Both the position numbers and the translations under genes were made by a program. Below are positions 4,743-63,272 of a DNA stretch of 64,000 nucleotides, piece after piece. The first letter of the stretch is position 1; the number at the start of each line of letters is the position of its first letter. The DNA is taken from positions 22,096-86,095 of the forward strand of contig JAKSRE010000008.1 of NCBI GenBank assembly GCA_024403775.1, written 5' to 3'. Source of the DNA: Clostridia bacterium (GTDB taxonomy: Bacteria > Bacillota > Clostridia > Saccharofermentanales > Saccharofermentanaceae). The notes beneath the pieces were generated by a model that did not search any database, had not been told where the DNA came from, and saw only the letters and a list, made by a program, of their open reading frames with translations.

Positions 4743-5414
4743 ATGGCTAAAAACATTATTAAAGTAAATGAGTTATATGATCTTACAAAGACAATTGCGC
4801 TAGACCTTTTATCAAGCAAAGAATATCCTTGGGAAGCTCTGGCTGAGATAAAAGATTTTATCTTAAAGCTAGGACCTACATTAGATACTGAAGAGTTTGA
4901 TAATCCTTCAGAAGGTGTCTGGATAGCTAAGGATGCAAAAGTTTTTCCATCAGCTTATATCGGAAGTCCATGCATTATAGATCATGGCGCTGAAGTTAGA
5001 CATTGTGCATTTATCAGAGGCTCAGCTATCGTTGGTAAGAATTCAGTAGTTGGTAATTCAACAGAACTTAAGAATGTAATCCTCTTTGATAACGTTCAGG
5101 TTCCTCATTATAACTATGTAGGCGACAGCGTTCTTGGATATAAGTCACATATGGGTGCTGGTTCTATAACAAGTAATGTTAAGAGCGACAAGACTCTCGT
5201 TGTAGTTAAGTCAAGCGAGGAAGAGATTCCAACAGGGCTTAAGAAGTTTGGTGCGATGCTTGGTGACTTTGTTGAGGTCGGCTGTAACAGCGTATTAAAT
5301 CCAGGCACTGTAATCGGCCCACATTCAAATGTTTATCCTACTTCCTGTGTTCGCGGAGTTATCCCTGAGAACAGTATTTTTAAGGATAAGAACAATATAG
5401 TTGAGAAGATTTGA
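4743..5414 (+). CDS. left-handed beta-helix (hexapeptide) acyltransferase resembling the C-terminal acetyltransferase domain of GlmU
   Basis: 223 aa. Hexapeptide repeats are visible (VGDSVLGYKSHMGAGSITSN, GDFVEVGCNSVLNPGTVIG). There is no nucleotidyltransferase N-domain. The gene lies directly downstream of glmM. Confidence 0.7.
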   Translation: MAKNIIKVNELYDLTKTIALDLLSSKEYPWEALAEIKDFILKLGPTLDTEEFDNPSEGVWIAKDAKVFPSAYIGSPCIIDHGAEVRHCAFIRGSAIVGKNSVVGNSTELKNVILFDNVQVPHYNYVGDSVLGYKSHMGAGSITSNVKSDKTLVVVKSSEEEIPTGLKKFGAMLGDFVEVGCNSVLNPGTVIGPHSNVYPTSCVRGVIPENSIFKDKNNIVEKI

Positions 5415-7380: not shown

Positions 7381-7420
7381 GGTTATAAGTCCCCCCCCGG
7401 CGCTTTTGTTATGGTTATGT
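7381..7420 (+). terminator. intrinsic terminator
   Basis: GC-rich hairpin agcgtcggaggg-ttataagt-ccccccccggcgct followed by ttttgtt. Confidence 0.6.
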
Positions 7421-7466
7421 GGAGGGTGCGGGTGAGGAGATTGTGGATTTTAAAGTCTTGGGATTA

Positions 7467-8036
7467 AAAGTCTATGTATGTGGTCTAGGTAGCCTAGACC
7501 AGTGACCTGGAATTTAAGGGTTAAAACGCCCAAAGTCTATGTATATGGTCTAGGTAGCCTAGACCAGTAACCTGGAATTTAAGGGTTAAAACGCCCAAAG
7601 TCTATGTACATGGTCTAGGTAACCTAGACCAGTGACCTGGAATTTAAGGTCTAAAACGTCAAAAGTCTATGTACATGGTCTAGGTAGCCTAGACCAGTAA
7701 CCTGGAATTTAAGGGTTAAAACGCCCAAAGTCTATGTACATGGTCTAGGTAACCTAGACCAGTGACCTGGAATTTAAGGTCTAAAACGTCAAAAGTCTAT
7801 GTACATGGTCTAGGTAGCCTAGACCAGTGACCTAGAATTTAAGGGTTAAAACGCCAAAAGTCTATGTACGTGGTCTAGGTAGCCTAGACCAGTGACCTAG
7901 AATTTAAGGTCTAAAACGCCAAAAGTCTATGTATGTGGTCTAGGTAGCCTAGACCAGTGACCTAGAATTTAAGGTCTAAAACGTCAAAAGTCTATGTACA
8001 TGGTCTAGGTAGCCTAGACCAGTAACCTGGAATTTA
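7467..8036. repeat. tandem array of 9 type-A units (65-bp period) each with the hairpin ggtctagg-tag-cctagacc
   Basis: Unit starts (aaagtctatgta) were indexed by hand at 7467, 7532, 7597, 7662, 7727, 7792, 7857, 7922 and 7987. Confidence 0.97.
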
Positions 8037-8041
8037 TGACT

Positions 8042-8183
8042 TTCACGGTGAGATGTCGCGGTAGCCGGTACACTCTACCGCGGATTTGAGGTCAAAACAG
8101 CGATTTTTCACGGTAAGATGTCGCGGTAGCCGGTACACTCTACCGCGAATTAACGGTACAACGTTACGGTAACCGTCACATGC
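8042..8183. repeat. two type-B units (65-bp period, hairpin cgcggtag-N10-ctaccgcg) plus one diverged B-like (C') unit
   Basis: The ttcacggt units start at 8042 and 8107. They are followed by aacggtacaacgttacggtaaccgtcac. The same modules recur at 41.1 kb and 62.7 kb. Confidence 0.9.
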
Positions 8184-8362
8184 ACGCCCCGATTCCTCCG
8201 CCACTACTACCACTTACAAGGCTGCTACCATAAACTTAGACGCCACTGTCAACCTGTCCCACCACCGCCTGGTCCGCTGTCACTATCATAATCGAATCAA
8301 ACTAATTATCCATTAGAACTTATTGGTTTATAATAATTAATAAAAAAACAAAGAGGCATAAA

Positions 8363-8896
8363 ATGGTCTATTTTAGTAATGAAGAAATATTAATTCGTGA
8401 TATGGTTTCAAGTGATGCGCAGATAATAACAGATTTGGAGATTAAGCAGGGTTGGAATCAGACTATAGATAAATATAATAAGCGACTTAAGGATCAGGAA
8501 GACGGAAAATCTTATGCGATTGTGGCTGAGTATAAAGGATGCATCGCTGGATATATAAATGTTTATTTGAATTCTGATGAGGGACCTTATAAAAATCTTG
8601 GGATACCTGAGATAGTGGATTTGGGTGTTCTTAAAGAATACCGTAATAAAGGTATCGGAAATAAACTACTGGATATTGCCGAAGATATATCTTCTAAGCA
8701 TTCTGATCAAGTTTTCTTAGCGGTTGGACTTCATAATGGATATGGAGCAGCTCAGCGTATGTATGTAAAGCGTGGATATATTCCTGATGGATCTGGCGTG
8801 TGGTATGAAGGTCAGGTTTTACCACAATATGAGAAATGCGTTAATGATGATAGTTTGGTATTATTTTTTGCGAAAAGCTTGGCTAAAGAGAATTAA
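8363..8896 (+). CDS. GNAT family N-acetyltransferase
   Basis: 177 aa. Acetyl-CoA binding motif EYRNKGIGNKLL (R/Q-x-x-G-x-G/A). Confidence 0.8.
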   Translation: MVYFSNEEILIRDMVSSDAQIITDLEIKQGWNQTIDKYNKRLKDQEDGKSYAIVAEYKGCIAGYINVYLNSDEGPYKNLGIPEIVDLGVLKEYRNKGIGNKLLDIAEDISSKHSDQVFLAVGLHNGYGAAQRMYVKRGYIPDGSGVWYEGQVLPQYEKCVNDDSLVLFFAKSLAKEN

Positions 8897-24018: not shown

Positions 24019-24807
24019 ATGAAGTGTTCAAAATGTGGATTTGAAGACAACTCTAATTCAAAGTTCTGTAGTAATTGTGGAACACCATTAGTAGTTAGTG
24101 AACCAGTAGTTGAGACTGTGAAAGAAGAAGTTAAGCCAGCTGAGGAAGTAAAGGCTGAAGAGCCAAAAAAGGAAGCTCCTGCTCCAGTAGCTGCACCAGT
24201 TGTTACACCAGTAGCACCAGCACCTGCTCCTGCTGCTCCAGCACAGCCAGAGGCTCCAGTAGCACCTGTTGCTCCAGCACCAGCTGTAAATAGATTTGCT
24301 CCAAATGCAGGCGCAGTTGATATGGGTAAAAGTTCAGTTATTCCAGAAGCACCAAAGGCTCCTGTTGCACCAGTTGTTCCAGTTGTAGCTGAAGAGAAGG
24401 CTATTCCAGTTGATAAGAAGGCAGCAAAGAAAGCTGAGAAGGAGGCAAAGAAGAACGCAAAAATTGACGAGAAGAATACTGCTAAGTCTTCTAAGGCAGT
24501 AGCAAAGGCTGAAGCTGAACAGGCAAAGATTGATGCTTGTCCTAAGTGCTATAAGCCAGTATCTGCTACAAAATTCTTCTGGCTTATGTTAATTAACGCA
24601 ATCCCAGTAGTAGGATTGGTATTCTCATTCTTCGCATCACTTATCTCGCCTAATCGTAACATTAAGAGATTTGAGAAGGCAGCTTGCATCTGGTCTTTTA
24701 TCCTTACACTTATCGTTGCAGGATTGATCTGTGTTGGCGTATTCTATTTTGGTGATGATAATATCTTTGATATCCTCTATGATCTCGGTGAGGCATTGGG
24801 ATTCTGA
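24019..24807 (+). CDS. hypothetical zinc-ribbon protein with Pro/Ala-rich linker and C-terminal membrane segments
   Basis: CSKCG..CSNCG zinc ribbon, a PAPVAAPVVTPVAPAPAPAAPAQPEAP linker, and two hydrophobic segments at the C-terminus. Confidence 0.65.
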   Translation: MKCSKCGFEDNSNSKFCSNCGTPLVVSEPVVETVKEEVKPAEEVKAEEPKKEAPAPVAAPVVTPVAPAPAPAAPAQPEAPVAPVAPAPAVNRFAPNAGAVDMGKSSVIPEAPKAPVAPVVPVVAEEKAIPVDKKAAKKAEKEAKKNAKIDEKNTAKSSKAVAKAEAEQAKIDACPKCYKPVSATKFFWLMLINAIPVVGLVFSFFASLISPNRNIKRFEKAACIWSFILTLIVAGLICVGVFYFGDDNIFDILYDLGEALGF

Positions 24808-24848
24808 TTTATCTTATCCGACTAATTAGGTTGAATTAAAGTTTTTAT

Positions 24849-24880
24849 AAGCACTCAGTGTAATAGCTGAGTGCTTTTTT
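24849..24880 (+). terminator. intrinsic terminator
   Basis: aagcactcag-tgtaatag-ctgagtgctt followed by tttt. Confidence 0.85.
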
Positions 24881-25084
24881 ACGCTGATGTCACGTTTGTT
24901 CGGATGTGTCTCCTAATAATAGAATAATATAGAGCACAAATTAAATAGATTACAAAGAGAATATACTACAAGTGTAATATAGACATATAGCTTCTATTAT
25001 GTTTTCTGTCTATAGTGATTGAACATTCGTAATGATTCCATTATCTAATATTCTGGTTCTTTTAAAGAATGTTGAATAATTAAT

Positions 25085-25118
25085 AAGGTCACCCTGGAAG
25101 AATTGCCAGGGTGACCTT
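25085..25118. other. isolated perfect 13-bp-stem hairpin in an ORF-free AT-rich gap
   Basis: aaggtcaccctgg-aagaattg-ccagggtgacctt. There is no T-run on the + strand and an A/T-rich run on the - strand side. Confidence 0.7.
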
Positions 25119-25344
25119 ACTCTTACGAGTAACACTATGAAAACACTATATCCTGGGTAGGATGAGATTATTATACTTAAATAGTGTACTAATATTGGTA
25201 CAGATTGTTCTGTGGCATAAAAAGTATTGGTGATATTACCAAAGTTCTTTTTATTGGTTAATATCTGAAGTAAGAACTTGAGAATTTATTGTTTTGATAG
25301 TAGGATAGTTTTGAAGTTTATTATTTTTGGAAAGGTAGAGTAGT

Positions 25345-26478
25345 ATGCATTTTTTTATTAAGCATAAAGATTTGAACATATTGAAGTTTGAATTAATACA
25401 TAACTTTGCCGATCCAGAAGTACAAATTGAATGGATTAATGAGGACTTTAGAGAATTTCTTCCACTAGATTTAGAACTTACGAACGAGGGTGTTGCTAAG
25501 TGGCTTAAGCATAGAACAATACCTAAGAACAGAGCGTACGTAAATAACTTTCTTTCAAAATGTGGCCTTAGTATAAATAGACCTATGGATATTATATCTG
25601 TGTCTAAGGGGCTTAGTCTAAATGATGTTTACTGGGTTGTAGAAGAAGGCTTTGATGGGTGTTTTGACAGGTATAATCTATACGAGAATAATTTTAGTCA
25701 GATTTTAGCGTTGATTGCTTTTACTGGTTACGGTAGTTCTATTAGAAGTTCTCTTGCATCATGCCCTGAGTTTACAACAAATGGTAATTTGCCTAAATGT
25801 TGGAGAAGAGAATCAGGAAAGGTATACCTTTATAAGGGTGGAACTTCTGGGGCTTCAAATACTGGTAATGAACCTTATTCCGAATACTATGCATCTCAGA
25901 TTGCAAAGGCTATGGGTATAAATGCAATTGACTATAGCATTAAAAAATGGAATGGTGAGTTGTGCTCAGTCTGTGAGATATTCTCTGGTTTAGATTATTC
26001 ATTTGTTCCAGTTGGAAGGCTAGTAACAAAGGGAGGAATGGAAGCGGTAAGAGCCTTCTATGAAGGTTTAGGTCCTGAATTTGTAGATGCTCTTAATGAA
26101 ATGCTTGTATTTGATGCCGTTATCTGTAACACTGATAGACATTTTGGTAATTTTGGAGTTTTGGTTGATAACAAAACCAATAAGATAGTTTGTCCTGCTC
26201 CTTTATTTGATCATGGTAATTCTCTTTTCAATTTCGCTGGAGGATTGGACTTAGAATCTAGTGAAGCTTTTCAGGAATATGTTGATACTCTTTTACCAGC
26301 TACATATGACGATTTTATTTCTACTGCAAAAATGTTCATGACTGACAAAAATCGAGAGCAAGTTAGACACTTGTTGGATTATAAACTGAAAAAGAATGTA
26401 AGATATAACGTTTCAAATGAACGATATAAACTTATAAATTCTCAAATAATTAAGCGTGCCAAACTGTTGCTTGAATGA
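25345..26478 (+). CDS. HipA-like serine/threonine kinase domain protein (solitary, no adjacent HipB)
   Basis: 377 aa. Catalytic-loop-like CNTDRHFGNFG (DRHxxN) and the downstream FDHGNSLF. The gene is visibly more AT-rich than its neighbours. Confidence 0.7.
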   Translation: MHFFIKHKDLNILKFELIHNFADPEVQIEWINEDFREFLPLDLELTNEGVAKWLKHRTIPKNRAYVNNFLSKCGLSINRPMDIISVSKGLSLNDVYWVVEEGFDGCFDRYNLYENNFSQILALIAFTGYGSSIRSSLASCPEFTTNGNLPKCWRRESGKVYLYKGGTSGASNTGNEPYSEYYASQIAKAMGINAIDYSIKKWNGELCSVCEIFSGLDYSFVPVGRLVTKGGMEAVRAFYEGLGPEFVDALNEMLVFDAVICNTDRHFGNFGVLVDNKTNKIVCPAPLFDHGNSLFNFAGGLDLESSEAFQEYVDTLLPATYDDFISTAKMFMTDKNREQVRHLLDYKLKKNVRYNVSNERYKLINSQIIKRAKLLLE

Positions 26479-38003: not shown

Positions 38004-38963
38004 ATGGAAGTAAGTTTTCCTTACTTGAATTGGACTCTGAATATAAAGAGTTATTTTACCGTTTTCGGGTTTGAGATAAGATTTTACAGCATATGTATTT
38101 GCTTTGGTATGTTCCTTTGCGCTGCTCTTGCAATGCTCGAAAGTCGAAAGAATAAGTTTTCTGAAGATACAGTAGCGGATATTATGCTTATCACAATTCC
38201 ATGTTCAGTAATCGGTGCAAGAGCATATTATGTTCTTTGCAACTGGGATTACTATAAGGGCAACTGGTCCGAGATTCTAAACGTACGTAATGGTGGTCTT
38301 GCGGTATATGGCGGCATCATTCTTACAGTTTTCTGCACCTATCTTTTGTGCTATATCCGTAAGATTCCGTTCGATGCATTGACAGACTACGCATTTATAT
38401 ACATTCCAGTAGGTCAGGCAATTGGACGCTGGGGCAACTTCTTTAATCAGGAGGCATTTGGTACTACTACCAAACTTCCATGGGGAATGACTTCTGATGC
38501 AGTAAAAGGCTACCTCAAAGCTTACTGCCCAACATTAGATCCAAATATGCCGGTTCATCCTACGTTCTTATATGAATCCATACTTAACCTTATTTTGTTT
38601 GCGATTCTTCATGAAGTTCGTAAGAGAAGTAAGTTTAGATATGAGACAACGAGTGTATATCTCATAGGTTATGGAATTATAAGATTTTTCCTTGAGGGAA
38701 TGAGAACAGATTCTTTGTATATAGGAAATACAGGAATCAGGACTTCACAGCTTTTATCCGCAATTCTTGTAATTGCAGGTTTGTCAATTATTGCATATTC
38801 ACGTTATGCAGAATTAGAGCGTCGTGAGCTTCCTGCTAAGTGTTTTGTAGATAAAACAGCAGCTCAGGCTGAGAAGACTTATCAGAAATCACTTGAGGAG
38901 AATAACGAGGCTACTGAGGCTGATGAGGATAAAGAGGGTAAAAAGGTTAGTAAGGCTAAGTGA
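38004..38963 (+). CDS. lgt: prolipoprotein diacylglyceryl transferase
   Basis: GARAYYV and GRWGNFFNQEAFG motifs, in a polytopic membrane protein. Confidence 0.92.
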   Translation: MEVSFPYLNWTLNIKSYFTVFGFEIRFYSICICFGMFLCAALAMLESRKNKFSEDTVADIMLITIPCSVIGARAYYVLCNWDYYKGNWSEILNVRNGGLAVYGGIILTVFCTYLLCYIRKIPFDALTDYAFIYIPVGQAIGRWGNFFNQEAFGTTTKLPWGMTSDAVKGYLKAYCPTLDPNMPVHPTFLYESILNLILFAILHEVRKRSKFRYETTSVYLIGYGIIRFFLEGMRTDSLYIGNTGIRTSQLLSAILVIAGLSIIAYSRYAELERRELPAKCFVDKTAAQAEKTYQKSLEENNEATEADEDKEGKKVSKAK

Positions 38964-38969
38964 GACTAA

Positions 38970-39125
38970 TTAAGGTGGTCTGACTGAAGGTTAACTGGAT
39001 TATAGGTTAACTGATGGATTGTAGGTTAACTGACTAAGAAGGTTTGATTGGACTATAAGGTCGGCTGGATTTAGAGGATAGCTAGACTAATAAGTTTAAC
39101 AGGACTAAGAAGGTTAAGTTAAAGA
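38970..39125. repeat. degenerate direct repeats (about 17-18 bp period, core RAGGTTAACTG)
   Basis: Copies begin near 38987, 39003, 39022, 39039, 39057, 39074, 39092 and 39110, between lgt and rodA. Confidence 0.6.
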
Positions 39126-39166
39126 TTTAATGATTTGCCTTCAAATTAGGAGTATTAGTATAGAGA

Positions 39167-40359: not shown

Positions 40360-40725
40360 ATGGATAAGGGTTTTGTTAAGAGCAAGACCGGCGCTCGCGT
40401 GCTCATGATTCTACTTGATATTTTTGTAGGTATCTGGGCTTGGCTGTTGATTCTTGCTTCTGTAGTTGCTTCACTTGTTGTTTTATGCGGCACAGGCTTT
40501 GCATTTTTCAAATTAATTCCTGTTGTGGCAGCGCTTACTCTTTATAAAGCTGCGGCTGTCCTTGGAATGATCGCATTGTTCTTCTTTATTATATTCGTTG
40601 CTGTTGTCTGCATCTTTGTAATACAGTTCTTCTGTAAAGCAACAACTGTATATCACGATTATCACAAGAGTATGTGGAATGAAGGATTTACAGTATATGA
40701 AGGAATAAGGGGGAGAAAGGTATGA
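40360..40725 (+). CDS. hypothetical polytopic membrane protein
   Basis: 121 aa with three hydrophobic segments. RBS ggagg upstream. Confidence 0.6.
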   Translation: MDKGFVKSKTGARVLMILLDIFVGIWAWLLILASVVASLVVLCGTGFAFFKLIPVVAALTLYKAAAVLGMIALFFFIIFVAVVCIFVIQFFCKATTVYHDYHKSMWNEGFTVYEGIRGRKV

Positions 40726-40895
40726 AGAAGTTTAATATAGTTACTTTTTGTATCGGTCTAGTTGCATGGATTATGTGTGCATTTTTCTTATTTTTGGCTT
40801 TGGTAACATTTGTGTTTAGTGCATCAAAGAATGTAGATATAAGTAGTGTTATAACAGATGTAAAAAATAAGATTGAATTAATCTATGATGTTTAA
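40722..40895 (+). CDS. hypothetical small membrane protein (57 aa, below the ORF-track cutoff)
   Basis: My own translation is MKKFNIVTFCIGLVAWIMCAFFLFLALVTFVFSASKNVDISSVITDVKNKIELIYDV. The ATG overlaps the previous stop (ATGA) and follows an ggggagaaagg RBS. Confidence 0.5.
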   Translation: MKKFNIVTFCIGLVAWIMCAFFLFLALVTFVFSASKNVDISSVITDVKNKIELIYDV

Positions 40896-40922
40896 ATAAG
40901 GGCCTAAAATATTATCCTGACA

Positions 40923-40958
40923 TTAAATGATGCCACCTCAAAACCTATGGGTTTTGAG
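40923..40958 (+). terminator. intrinsic terminator
   Basis: Perfect 13-bp stem ccacctcaaaacc-tatg-ggttttgaggtgg followed by tttttg. Confidence 0.9.
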
Positions 40959-41000
40959 GTGGTTTTTGTGTTGTGTGGGATATTGTGGTTATTTATGGAT

Positions 41001-41119
41001 TAGAACATGAAAAGTCTATGTACATGGTCTAGGTAGCCTAGACCGGTGACCTAAAAATTAAGGGTTAAAACGTCAAAAGTCTATGTACATGGTCTAGGTA
41101 ACCTAGACCAGTAACCTGG
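41001..41119. repeat. two type-A 65-bp units
   Basis: aaagtctatgtacatgg starts at 41001 and 41066. Same consensus as at 7.5 kb and 62.8 kb. Confidence 0.95.
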
Positions 41120-41300
41120 AATTTTGATTTTCACGGTAAGATGTCGCGGTAGCCGGTACACCCAACCGCGAATTTGGGGCCAGAATAGCATTTTTTCACG
41201 GTACAATGTCGCGGTAGCCGGTACACCCAACCGCGAATCTGAGGCTAAAAGCACGATTTTTCACGGTAAGATGTCGCGGTAGCCGGTACACCCAACCGCG
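41120..41300. repeat. three type-B 65-bp units
   Basis: ttcacggta starts at 41120, 41185 and 41250. Core sequence gatgtcgcggtagccggtacacccaaccgcg. Confidence 0.95.
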
Positions 41301-41371
41301 AATCTATGAATTAATCAGTGTCAAGGTCCAACTAATTGCGTTATAGACTTTGTACAACCACGATGCCATTC

Positions 41372-41555
41372 ACCTACCGACAAAACTAACAGTACAAGTG
41401 ACGGTTACCGTAACATCCTACCGTCATTTTAGGCTATTTACTGACCAAACTAACAGTACAAGTGACGGTTACCGTAACGTCCTACCATCATTTTAGGCTA
41501 TTTAACGACAAAACTAACTGTATAAGTGACGCCAACCGTAAAGTCTTACCATTAA
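41372..41555. repeat. three type-C units (about 64-bp period), inverted B-like modules
   Basis: aaactaac starts at 41373, 41437 and 41501. The core gtgacggttaccgtaac is the reverse complement of gttacggtaaccgtcac seen at 8.17 kb and 62.73 kb. Confidence 0.9.
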
Positions 41556-41800
41556 TTCACCCCTTTCATCCCCAAATCAGTAAATCTCGCATTCTCTTAC
41601 CCAGAAACTCAAAGTAACTCCAGCACATCTTCCCAATTTCAATCCCAATTCCAATCCCAATCCCATTCCCGCTCCTAATTCCAAAAACAATTCTCAACCT
41701 CGCGCAAGTCTTACACAAAAAACATTCTCACACCAGATCGCGTAAGCCACCACTACTTCCAGGAGTACAAGATCCTACAATCAGCGGCACAAACCACCAT
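41548..41800 (+). other. G-depleted, C-rich non-coding tract (rut-like; C3-tract run at 41622-41660)
   Basis: Hand count for 41561-41680: 44 C and 6 G out of 120 nt. No ORF of 60 aa or more. Confidence 0.7.
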
Positions 41801-41877
41801 TAAATCTGCGAATTAATTCCTTTGTGCAACCTGCAAAAATATAAAAGAAATTTGTTTTGTAATTTCTTTGAAATATT

Positions 41878-41906
41878 GAAAAAAATGTTGCAATTTAACC
41901 GAAACA
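41878..41906 (+). promoter_or_regulatory. candidate sigma-A promoter of the mraZ/dcw operon (TTGCAA-17-TAAAAT)
   Basis: ttgcaa at 41878-41883, a 17-nt spacer, and taaaat at 41901-41906. The inverted repeat aaatgtt/aacattt spans the -35 element and spacer. Confidence 0.55.
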
Positions 41907-41976
41907 TTTGTAAAATCATTGTGTCAGAGGGATAAAAAGTTACAAAAAGTTGTGTTTGAGTGTCGTTTTGTGGTTG

Positions 41977-42053
41977 AATCGGGATGAAACAGTAAACAGT
42001 AAGCGGTAAGCAGTAAGCGGTAAACAGTAAACGCCGAACGTTAAACAGTAACC
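41977..42053 (+). repeat. heptanucleotide tandem repeat (consensus AARCRGT, about 11 units) in the mraZ leader
   Basis: Units in order: aaacagt aaacagt aagcggt aagcagt aagcggt aaacagt aaacgcc gaacgtt aaacagt aacctgt aagcgta. The repeat decays further downstream. Confidence 0.85.
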
Positions 42054-42147
42054 TGTAAGCGTAACCAGCAAATTGCAAAGGTAAACAGCCCTAGCAATTA
42101 GCTAAGTTAGTTTCTTCCAATCAACTTTAGGGCTTAACCAAGAACAA

Positions 42148-42190
42148 CCATCGTTATCTTTTATTGATTAACGATGGCTTTTGCTTTCTT
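42148..42190 (+). terminator. terminator-like hairpin within the mraZ leader (attenuator or 3' end of a leader RNA)
   Basis: ccatcgtta-N12-taacgatgg followed by cttttgctttctt, 57 nt upstream of the mraZ ATG. Confidence 0.55.
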
Positions 42191-42246
42191 AACTTTTTAA
42201 ACACCTGAAAATAAGTTTCTATAGTTCGTCGCGAAGGATTATTGGA

Positions 42247-42744
42247 ATGGCAAGAGATGTAAAGAAAATTGATAACAAGGGAAGATTTTATATTCCTGCC
42301 CGAATCAAAGATGAGTTCTCGGGTGATTTGGTTGTTACTAACAGTTTCGACCGTGGTTATCTTTGCGTCTATAAAAGAGAAGATTATGAGAAGTTAGAGA
42401 AGGACTTTCTTGGAAATGCGAACTACTTTAGTAGAGATGCTCGTATATTCCAGAAGCTCATCATCGCACCTAAGATTGATGTAACTCTTGATTCTCAGAG
42501 TCGACTTACCATTACTGATGAACTTTGGGAGAATATCGGTGCCTTAAGAGGCGATGACATCTGTGTATTTGATGTTGGATCAAGACTTGAGATTTGTACC
42601 GTTGAGACTTACAAGAATGAAGACTGGGATTACGGAGCAATTGAACGCTTGTCAGAGAAGTATACTGCATCAAGCCCATCTTCTTTTGGAAATGTTACGG
42701 TTGATAATTCAAATTCAGATGTAACTAATCCGACTGCTAACTAA
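42247..42744 (+). CDS. mraZ: transcriptional regulator MraZ
   Basis: Two SpoVT/AbrB-like halves with DNKGRFYIP and DSQSRLTI motifs. It is the first gene of the dcw cluster. Its C-terminal tail is longer than usual. Confidence 0.88.
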   Translation: MARDVKKIDNKGRFYIPARIKDEFSGDLVVTNSFDRGYLCVYKREDYEKLEKDFLGNANYFSRDARIFQKLIIAPKIDVTLDSQSRLTITDELWENIGALRGDDICVFDVGSRLEICTVETYKNEDWDYGAIERLSEKYTASSPSSFGNVTVDNSNSDVTNPTAN

Positions 42745-62620: not shown

Positions 62621-62658
62621 CTGTCTCAAGGTTATATGGCTTTGGGACAGTTTTTTTG
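62621..62658 (+). terminator. intrinsic terminator
   Basis: ctgtctcaa-N12-ttgggacag (one G-U pair) followed by ttttttt. Confidence 0.8.
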
Positions 62659-62671
62659 TTGATGGATGTTT

Positions 62672-62750
62672 TTCATGGTAGGATGCCGCGGTAGTTGGTA
62701 CACTCTACCGCGGATTAATGGTAAGACGTTACGGTAACCGTCACTTACAC
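62672..62750. repeat. one type-B unit plus one C' unit
   Basis: ttcatggtaggatgccgcggtagttggtacactctaccgcgg followed by attaatggtaagacgttacggtaaccgtcac. Confidence 0.9.
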
Positions 62751-62773
62751 ACTTATTTAATGAATAAGACGTA

Positions 62774-63148
62774 AAAGTCTATGTACATGGTCTAGGTCGC
62801 CTAGACCGGTAACCTAGAATTTAAGGCCAAAAATGCCAAAAGTCTATGTATGTGGTCTAGGTAGCCTAGACCGGTAACCTAGAATTTAAGGCCAAAAACG
62901 CCAAAAGTCTATGTACATGGTCTAGGTAGCCTAGACCAGTAACCTGGAATTTAAGGCCCAAAACGCCAAAAGTCTATGTATGCGGTCTAGGTAGCCTAGA
63001 CCAGTAACCTAGAATTTAAGGCCAAAAATGCCAAAAGTCTATGTACATGGTCTAGGTAGCCTAGACCAGTAACCTAGAATTCAAGGCCAAAAACGCCAAA
63101 AGTCTATGTACATGGTCTAGGTAGCCTAGACCAGTAACCTGGAATGTA
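62774..63148. repeat. tandem array of 6 type-A units (65-bp period)
   Basis: Unit starts at 62774, 62839, 62904, 62969, 63034 and 63099. Confidence 0.97.
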
Positions 63149-63153
63149 TGACT

Positions 63154-63200
63154 TTCACGCTACGATGTCGCGGTAGCCGCGACATCAAACCGCGGATTTC
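63154..63200. repeat. terminal B-like unit containing a perfect 10-bp-arm palindrome
   Basis: gatgtcgcgg-tag-ccgcgacatc at 63164-63186. The A-to-B junction cctggaatgtatgactttcacg matches the junction at the other loci. Confidence 0.85.
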
Positions 63201-63272
63201 ATATAGCTATGCCACTTTTTTCTATTCAAAAGATGTATAATTAGAATATATGAATTAATGAGAGGTTATTTT

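Follow-up and report, generated by a model that had tools for sequence, protein, structure and literature searches.

The stretch of Clostridia DNA analysed here (64,000 nucleotides of contig JAKSRE010000008.1, Saccharofermentanaceae; hereafter the window) carries a 1351-bp gap (40896-42246) between the end of a 57-aa open reading frame (ORF) at 40895, which belongs to a unit with rodA and a 121-aa ORF, and the start of mraZ at 42247. The genes downstream of the gap are mraZ, an rsmH-type methyltransferase gene, a gene for a 201-aa protein with no Pfam match, a penicillin-binding protein gene, murE, murF, ftsW, murG and a ftsQ-like gene. As a first-pass annotation of this DNA had stated, the gap is free of ORFs of at least 60 aa up to 41800, and it houses, behind the terminator of the rodA unit and upstream of the dcw operon, an array of short repeat modules termed A, B and C. 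These modules are present at three loci in the 64 kb (7455-8180, 40993-41566 and 62670-63200; loci 1, 2 and 3, respectively), and the nature of the family that they form is the subject of this report.

At locus 2, the intrinsic terminator of the rodA unit (40932-40963, plus strand) has a 14-bp stem followed by TTTTGTG, and the element starts right past its T-tract. A TTTGTG motif (40965-40970) is succeeded by a G/T-rich, C-free lead-in (40971-40998, plus strand) that resembles the decayed 3′ part of an A unit. The lead-in is similar to that of locus 1, as had been noted before, with about 18 of 22 aligned columns alike (GTG-GGATATTGTGGTTATTTA versus GTGAGGAGATTGTGGAT-TTTA), and both look like decayed partial A units. 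Repeat finders delimited the modules proper to 40993-41566, as two A, three B and three inverted C units; the counts and spacings of the first-pass annotation are correct, its start coordinates differing only by the phase chosen for each unit. The two A units (65 nt, starting at 40993 and 41058; feature 40999-41127, plus strand) are 83% identical to each other and contain the hairpin core GGTCTAGGTA[G/A]CCTAGACC at 41026 and 41091, with hairpins GGTCTAGG-TAG/TAA-CCTAGACC at 41026-41044 and 41091-41109. The three B units (41128-41305, plus strand; 65 nt, starting at 41128, 41193 and 41258 and thus spaced by exactly 65 nt) form an imperfect apex hairpin, GATGTCGCGG-TAG-CCGGTACACC, and an alternative inner stem, CGCGGT/ACCGCG, of 6 bp versus 8 bp (CGCGGTAG/CTACCGCG) at locus 1, a shortening already described.

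The B block is followed by a junction spacer (41306-41374, minus strand), in which an inverted fragment of an A-unit start, ATAGACTTT, occurs at 41343-41351 (a 9-nt match to the A consensus and only suggestive), and by the three C units (41375-41566; 64 nt, starting at 41375, 41439 and 41503, spacing 64 nt). The latter are B-like and inverted, reading GTAGGATGTTACGG-TAA-CCGTCAC on the minus strand. Their core GTGACGGTTACCGTAAC (41398 and 41462) is, as previously claimed, the exact reverse complement of the GTTACGGTAACCGTCAC found at loci 1 and 3 (8163 and 62728). The element ends in a C-rich, G-poor tail (41567-41820, minus strand; 35% C and 8% G, GC skew down to −0.8) that is interpreted as flanking the inverted half on its outer side, and a second TTTGTG copy (41821-41826) lies immediately behind it. 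The tail includes a (CCCAAT)n hexamer run at 41631-41670, which on the minus strand reads GGGAATGGGATTGGGATTGG... and is a potential G-quadruplex motif, unusual at 38% GC. A decayed gene as the origin of the C-rich tails was dropped, as no open frame or recognizable protein remnant was found in the six frames examined at locus 2.

Locus 1 (7405-8300, plus strand) consists of a lead-in, nine A units (7455-8039), two B units, one direct C core (8163-8179) and a C-rich tail, while locus 3 (62653-63205, plus strand) consists of a lead-in, a B-like unit, a direct C core (62728-62744), six A units (62762-63151) and a variant, B′, with a perfect 10-bp apex hairpin (GATGTCGCGG-TAG-CCGCGACATC). That the three loci belong to one modular repeat family, an earlier proposal, is borne out by the core patterns, which yielded 34, 7 and 8 matches in the window versus 0.02-0.04 expected by chance. 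All three loci lie between co-directional genes and start about 10-40 nt from a terminator-like hairpin. Every A and B unit is arranged head to tail on the plus strand, which also encodes nearly all genes of the window, and the C block of locus 2 is the sole inverted block. A lead-in and a tail are present at loci 1 and 2 but are barely alignable between them, and the module order differs at locus 3. When the window and all loci of relatives were searched with nhmmer profiles of A, B and C, no solitary or diverged copies were found outside the three loci.

Units were aligned by anchoring on the hairpin apex, which gave GTACATGGTCTAGG TAG CCTAGACCAGTAAC for A, GTAAGATGTCGCGG TAG CCGGTACACCCAAC for B, CTACGATGTCGCGG TAG CCGCGACATCAAAC for B′ (63169) and GTAGGATGTTACGG TAA CCGTCACTTGTACT for C (locus 2, minus strand). 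Common to all four are a 5′ GTAN tag, a stem of 8-10 bp and a GG-TAR-CC apex; moreover, A and B share the inter-hairpin linker GAATyTrAGG(G)CTAAAA. The apex hairpins measure 19-31 nt in every unit. Eighteen of the 20 distinct aligned units begin with GTA, although the tag is GTAG in only three (two C and one B) and GTAC, GTAA or GTAT in the others; a second GTAG lies inside the apex, GGTAGCC. The stem sequences are wholly different among A, B and C, the apex alone being kept, and the change in the stem is compensatory: for example, GGTC-TA-GG/CC-TA-GACC in A corresponds to TGTC-GC-GG/CC-GC-GACA in B′. Both-sided changes affect 4 of the 10 stem pairs, and 78% of the stem cells are paired versus 63% in shuffles and 25-47% with slid partners, a comparison that covers only three or four independent lineages and is supportive rather than decisive. 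By this alignment, A, B, B′ and C are apparently diverged versions of one 64-65-bp unit with a REP-like hairpin core.

The similarity between B and the reverse complement of C, earlier put at roughly 70% over about 30 nt, is real, with a best local alignment that is shorter and more identical (19 of 23 nt; ACGGTAAGATGTCGCGGTAGCCG versus ACGGTAGGATGTTACGGTAACCG; score 26 versus 11.8 ± 2.0 for shuffled sequences, reached by 0 of 1000 shuffles). Since the units are homologous quasi-palindromes, such a likeness is expected from homology plus inversion and is no evidence of a designed long inverted repeat. Locus 2 appears best described as two arrays placed tail to tail. Its left half (lead-in, two A and three B units) would be an array of the usual family and orientation, and its right half (A fragment, three C units and G-poor flank) would be the same kind of array, inverted. 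In support of an inversion, the GC skew of the right half is −0.2 to −0.8, versus +0.13 to +0.18 on the plus strand generally; moreover, the minus-strand order of flank, three C units and A fragment matches the plus-strand C-then-A order at locus 3. Two arrays lying tail to tail thus account for what looks like a large imperfect inverted repeat.

The rodA-mraZ region was compared with those of relatives. In L007 (RodA 96% identical) the terminator is followed by TTTTTTTGTG and then directly by CAAGTTGCAAAAAT, with nothing between, so that the whole 40971-41820 segment is missing. It is likewise missing from L008 (RodA 85% identical), where the terminator directly abuts the promoter; the gap is 405 bp in L007 and 338 bp in L008, versus 1351 bp here. 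Homology to L007 resumes exactly at 41821 (TTTGTGCAA) and continues at 98% identity through the mraZ promoter to 41985. Therefore, 40971-41820 represents an insertion of about 850 bp. TTTGTG occurs on both of its flanks here and once at the empty site of L007, as a possible target duplication or microhomology (a single case that overlaps the T-tail of the terminator). L007 and L010 each have an orthologous, though diverged, terminator. The 57-aa ORF and the terminator (40722-40990 versus 7404-7600 of L007) are far more diverged than the 98%-identical promoter region beyond the insertion, and this difference places the insertion where a fast-evolving or recombined segment meets one that is conserved. 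The first-pass annotation had called for such a comparison with related genomes and had named absence from close relatives, with no phenotype, as a sign of a passive insertion; the element was found missing and the promoter kept, which points to a passive insertion.

The other two sites differ among relatives as well. At locus 1, neither the array nor the GNAT acetyltransferase gene directly downstream of it (8363-8896) is present in L012 (AMP-binding protein 83% identical); the two may have been gained or lost together. At locus 3, the AAA ATPase gene is retained in L014-L016 (157-aa protein 90% identical), but their spacer of about 570 bp is unrelated, and L014 (10474-12300) harbours, right behind the terminator, an extra 210-aa gene (weak Flg_new match) that its sibling contigs L015 and L016 lack. 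As arrays or spacers differ among relatives at all three sites, post-terminator sites are hypervariable in this clade, and the A/B/C family itself appears, from these comparisons and the profile searches, to be confined to this strain. In L010 (RodA 94% identical; 5025-5221) the terminator is followed by a G/T-rich stretch and then by other hairpin units, GTGTCACC-CAGAT-GGTGACAC, spaced by 63-73 nt, after which the contig breaks. No alignment between L010 and the elements scored 30 or more. The L010 units suggest that the clade harbours other repeat families of similar architecture. A candidate conserved lead-in motif, GATTGTGGA, was discarded because it is not enriched in the window (18 matches versus 16.5 expected), and for the same reason the likeness of the L010 lead-in to that of locus 1 is not significant.

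Public collections were searched for the family. Rfam gave no match anywhere in the window at gathering thresholds, and by E-value only two sub-threshold microRNA chance matches in 40850-42300; blastn of the element against plasmids and phages gave no match. Exact scans with the A core found one match in GTDB genomes (Terriglobia) and three single matches in JGI metagenomes, none of which extends into adjoining unit sequence, and 0 matches in IMG/VR, where the C core had one match restricted to the 17-nt core. As the A and C matches are limited to the core, they were taken as chance. The B core had 72 single matches in phage contigs (mean 62% GC), covering only the 16-20 nt searched. The cores are thus absent as repeat units from the collections searched.

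A units are more alike within a locus (92% identity) than between loci (82-89%), and locus 1 shows a higher-order period of 130 bp; together these argue for amplification and homogenization in situ. Growth of the arrays by slippage or unequal crossing-over is thus well supported by the pattern of unit identities, and the exact copy numbers of the longer arrays depend on the accuracy of the assembly of the 91.6-kb contig that includes the window, whose origin, as we infer, is metagenomic. In three further samples, short-read Logan contigs of this strain show no difference until they break at the arrays. Samples SRR17543911, SRR25429217 and SRR25429209 contain this strain.

Taken together, the 40971-41820 segment is probably a strain-specific, non-coding insertion, one of the loci of an interspersed, mosaic minisatellite family restricted to this lineage. 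Most likely it is selfish or neutral repeat DNA rather than a regulator. Arrays would be seeded immediately 3′ of intrinsic terminators, either through an insertion that depends on hairpins or on single-stranded DNA, comparable to that of REP/RAYT and IS200/IS605-type elements, or through recombination at microhomologies, by which the TTTGTG repeats would be explained. Subsequently they would grow and be homogenized in place through replication slippage and unequal crossing-over between units, and they would be retained because an insertion is tolerated between a terminator and the promoter that follows. The repeats, their common hairpin geometry, their absence from relatives and the grouping of units by locus are observed; how arrays are seeded, and that they are selectively neutral, is what we infer.

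Several points weigh against this interpretation. A mobilizing activity is purely hypothetical, as a search of the window for transposase, RAYT and recombinase genes (Pfam scans for part of the ORFs, synteny with annotated relatives for the others) found none. Nor were there clear terminal inverted repeats: complementarity between lead and tail is weak at locus 2 (−38.3 versus −31.6 ± 2.8 kcal mol−1 for shuffled sequences, reached by 7 of 500 shuffles) and not significant at locus 1 (reached by 79 of 500). The TTTGTG copies could be a coincidental microhomology overlapping the T-tail of the terminator, or could mark a deletion in L007 instead of an insertion here. Arrays differ by 11-18% between loci, versus about 2% from L007 in the adjacent promoter region, so that the locus-2 array came from neither locus 1 nor locus 3 and may equally well have been acquired by allelic recombination. 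That the hairpin is conserved, with compensatory changes, could point to a function (RNA or protein binding) instead of a need of mobility. Finally, the copy-number and orientation data cover 64 kb of one genome.

The arrays may, with a small probability, be functional structured RNAs, made by read-through or from an unrecognized promoter and acting as a protein sponge, a 3′-end stabilizer or a processed multi-copy small RNA similar to type III antitoxin arrays. Every unit indeed folds into a stable hairpin (A units at −18.8 kcal mol−1, z = −2.4), the whole insertion of about 850 bp folds better than its shuffles (z = −4.9), apex and stem are conserved through compensatory changes across module types, and the A and B units without exception have the orientation of the flanking genes. 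Moreover, the arrays at loci 1 and 3 precede a GNAT and an AAA ATPase gene, respectively, superficially like the repeats-then-toxin arrangement of type III systems (PMC3401426). However, no promoter-like site was found upstream of or inside the arrays at any of the three loci, and the order here of terminator, repeats, promoter and gene is the reverse of that in type III systems (PMC3401426). The downstream genes are not ToxN-, CptN- or TenpN-like, and the AAA ATPase gene and mraZ are kept in relatives without the array. A GNAT toxin, and with it a type III toxin-antitoxin module, was rejected on gene order and because the locus-1 GNAT matches only generic acetyltransferase models, its single PDB match being a hypothetical protein. 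The asymmetry between G-U and A-C in the stems is mixed, so that neither strand is favoured as RNA, and there is the lack of an Rfam match.

Alternatively, and again as an unlikely though not negligible reading, the units would be recognition hairpins of a hairpin-specific enzyme or binding protein (a RAYT- or IS200-like HUH transposase, or an RNA-binding protein), or the arrays would be transcribed into multi-hairpin RNAs and titrate a protein that recognizes the conserved GG-UAR-CC apex. The first version would amount to a REP-like system of Clostridia that targets the 3′ side of intrinsic terminators and builds head-to-tail 65-bp minisatellites instead of inverted doublets. The GG-TAR-CC apex with its compensatory stems is the sole feature that hints at specific protein recognition, and a partner for it would raise the interest of the family.

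It is improbable that the arrays are double-stranded DNA sites for a dimeric protein, whether centromere-like (sopC), nucleoid-associated or regulatory, that binds a palindrome around GGTARCC or a CGGTA/CAGTA motif. The palindromes are regular, with arms of 8-10 bp every 65 bp, symmetric changes in both arms would be expected of a dimer site too, and CRGTAA-type motifs recur in B, C and A units and in a heptamer array at 41987-42070. Yet stems that differ completely around a kept apex fit hairpin recognition better than duplex half-sites, 65 bp is a non-integral number of helical turns, the arrays are missing from close relatives, and none of the three arrays has a candidate partition or regulator gene next to it.

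The idea that the B and C blocks form one long imperfect hairpin in RNA, or a cruciform in DNA, that modulates the dcw operon came from the first-pass annotation and has very little left in its favour. The folding that it called for did show the B block paired with the C block in the minimum-free-energy structure of the plus-strand RNA, with about 51 B-C base pairs expected in the ensemble and a gain of 24 kcal mol−1 over the halves folded apart. The specificity of this structure, however, did not survive a control in which the C block was flipped, which folds better than the actual sequence (−184.8 versus −170.3 kcal mol−1). The long-range gain falls to 10 kcal mol−1 on the minus strand and to about 7 kcal mol−1 with DNA parameters, and B-C complementarity extends over 19 of 23 nt per unit (83%) in blocks at least 70 nt apart. 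Because palindromic units pair in any arrangement and orientation, the predicted B-C structure is not specific. Such 23-nt arms of 83% identity, so spaced and with so small a gain in DNA, make a cruciform implausible. The mraZ promoter, furthermore, lies downstream of the element and is conserved without it. A degenerate or orphan CRISPR-like array, called to mind by a hairpin in each unit and a 64-65-bp period that is about the sum of a 36-nt repeat and a 30-nt spacer, is essentially refuted by the missing unique spacers, as the full 65 nt are conserved between units (92%) with no variable part, an identical ‘spacer’ would have to recur at three loci, no Rfam CRISPR repeat matched, and no cas domain was found in the Pfam-scanned ORFs of the window or among the genes annotated in syntenic relatives.

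The mraZ/dcw promoter, TTGCAA-17-TAAAAT (41888-41916, plus strand), lies outside the element. Just 3′ of it, at 41950-41985, GTGT/GTGT/GTGG/CGGG boxes (41952-41985) with a spacing of 8-10 bp are kept in L007 and L008. MraZ sites are known as direct repeats, and by analogy these boxes are a possible MraZ operator. With the promoter and the putative operator both outside the element and conserved in relatives without the array, a role of the array in dcw regulation is unlikely. Any influence on neighbours, be it through additional 3′ hairpins on read-through transcripts or through the C-rich, rut-like tract that precedes the mraZ promoter, would be a by-product. A second strain-specific indel in the mraZ leader (41986-42142, plus strand; 157 bp versus 44 bp in L007) starts right after the putative operator boxes and contains the heptamer array AAACAGT/AAGCGGT (about 6.6 copies, 41987-42070). 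It also includes the 10-mer CAGTAACCTG, found exactly elsewhere in the window only in A units, and may be debris of the same repeat family. Further along the leader (42143-42190), a hairpin, AACAACCATCGTTA / TAACGATGGCTTTT, with a T-rich run is conserved in L007 and is a possible attenuator or leader terminator.

Two other gaps in the window deserve mention. The one between lgt and rodA (38903-39166) is 203 bp here versus 14-38 bp in L007 and L008, and AGGTTAACTG occurs in it three times, within a 19-bp tandem repeat; a further repeat, of 9 bp, is found in the 3′ end of lgt, and the lgt-rodA region is another strain-specific repeat expansion. At 24807-26478, a gene that is HipA_C-like by a sub-threshold Pfam match is preceded by a gap of 537 bp, which carries a 13-bp perfect inverted repeat, AAGGTCACCCTGG ... 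CCAGGGTGACCTT, at about 25087-25119.

If the interpretation as selfish or neutral repeat DNA holds, the family would be one more lineage-specific, interspersed mosaic repeat family of bacteria, in an uncultured member of the Clostridia, of rumen or gut type, that is related to Saccharofermentans. The stretch between terminator and promoter would be a hot spot of strain-level turnover, as all three examined sites differ between close relatives. The arrays would also be good strain markers of the variable-number tandem repeat (VNTR) type; they break short-read assemblies and thereby affect the contiguity of metagenome-assembled genomes.

Mycobacterial MIRU-type VNTRs are intergenic tandem repeats of 40-100 bp that occur at many loci with strain-variable copy number, and the arrays here resemble them as dispersed intergenic tandem repeats of variable copy number. 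MIRUs, however, sit inside operons, often contain small overlapping ORFs and are not known to have a conserved hairpin; in these respects they differ from the A/B/C family, to which they have no known sequence relation. The arrays of type III toxin-antitoxin systems (ToxI, CptI and TenpI), known in Clostridiales among others, likewise place spacer-less tandem repeats before a protein gene (PMC3401426). Their order of promoter, repeats, terminator and toxin is nevertheless not found here, the unit is 65 nt long versus 36 nt in ToxI, and the downstream genes (mraZ, a generic GNAT and an AAA ATPase) are unrelated to known toxins and occur in relatives without an array.

Among the three closest comparisons, REP sequences and BIMEs, including GTAG-tagged REPs (PMC3733652; PMC2817692), resemble the family in several respects: (i) they are short imperfect palindromes with a conserved unpaired GTAG (or CGTC) tetranucleotide at one end, and the units here have a GTAG-like 5′ tag, although GTAG itself is limited to two C units and one B unit of the 20 distinct aligned units, the other GTA tags being GTAA, GTAC or GTAT; (ii) their palindromes form stem-loops of 20-40 bp, comparable to the 19-31-nt apex hairpins with compensatory pairing; (iii) they are extragenic, mostly 3′ of coding regions and between co-directional genes, as is the case at three of three loci here; and (iv) they form species-specific mosaic clusters of several unit types with variable copy number, in which units are reiterated in tandem together with flanking DNA. 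The 64-65-bp units here are, in contrast, mainly head to tail, whereas REP units typically occur as close inverted pairs (REPIN/BIME), and the most conserved part is the GG-TAR-CC apex and not only the foot tag. REPs are characterized by a high copy number and by a cognate RAYT gene (a Y1 HUH transposase) in the genome that the repeats flank. Moreover, no RAYT gene is known for the A/B/C family, no transposase-like domain was found in the 64-kb window, and the host is a low-GC member of the Clostridia, Firmicutes being unmentioned in the cited REP survey.

BOX modules are about 45-59 nt long, versus 64-65 nt here. In architecture, by which the comparison was made (the Rfam library, which gave no match, may hold no BOX family), BOX elements are a counterpart from Firmicutes, as interspersed composites of modules in Streptococcus (boxA-boxB(n)-boxC) of which one forms a variable tandem array (PMC3049150). 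They too are intergenic, with predicted stem-loops and a module number that varies between strains, and in S. suis further module types occur in particular ‘permutations’ (PMC3049150). In the present family, on the other hand, A, B and C have each been amplified, and fixed bounding modules of the boxA/boxC type have not been demonstrated. The BrickBuilt miniature inverted-repeat transposable elements of Porphyromonas gingivalis (PMC4596501) share the plan of a leader, spacer-less tandem repeats and a tail, are always intergenic, and have multiple loci per genome and a limited host range. Their unit is 23 nt, however, their ends are small inverted repeats and they have demonstrated promoter activity (PMC4596501), whereas the arrays here combine a 65-nt unit and an internal hairpin with no clear terminal inverted repeats and no promoter-like sites. 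For each of the three, at least one defining feature has no clear counterpart here, so that the A/B/C family is not filed under BIME, BOX or BrickBuilt; the best-supported reading is that it is a new, lineage-restricted family of the same broad kind.

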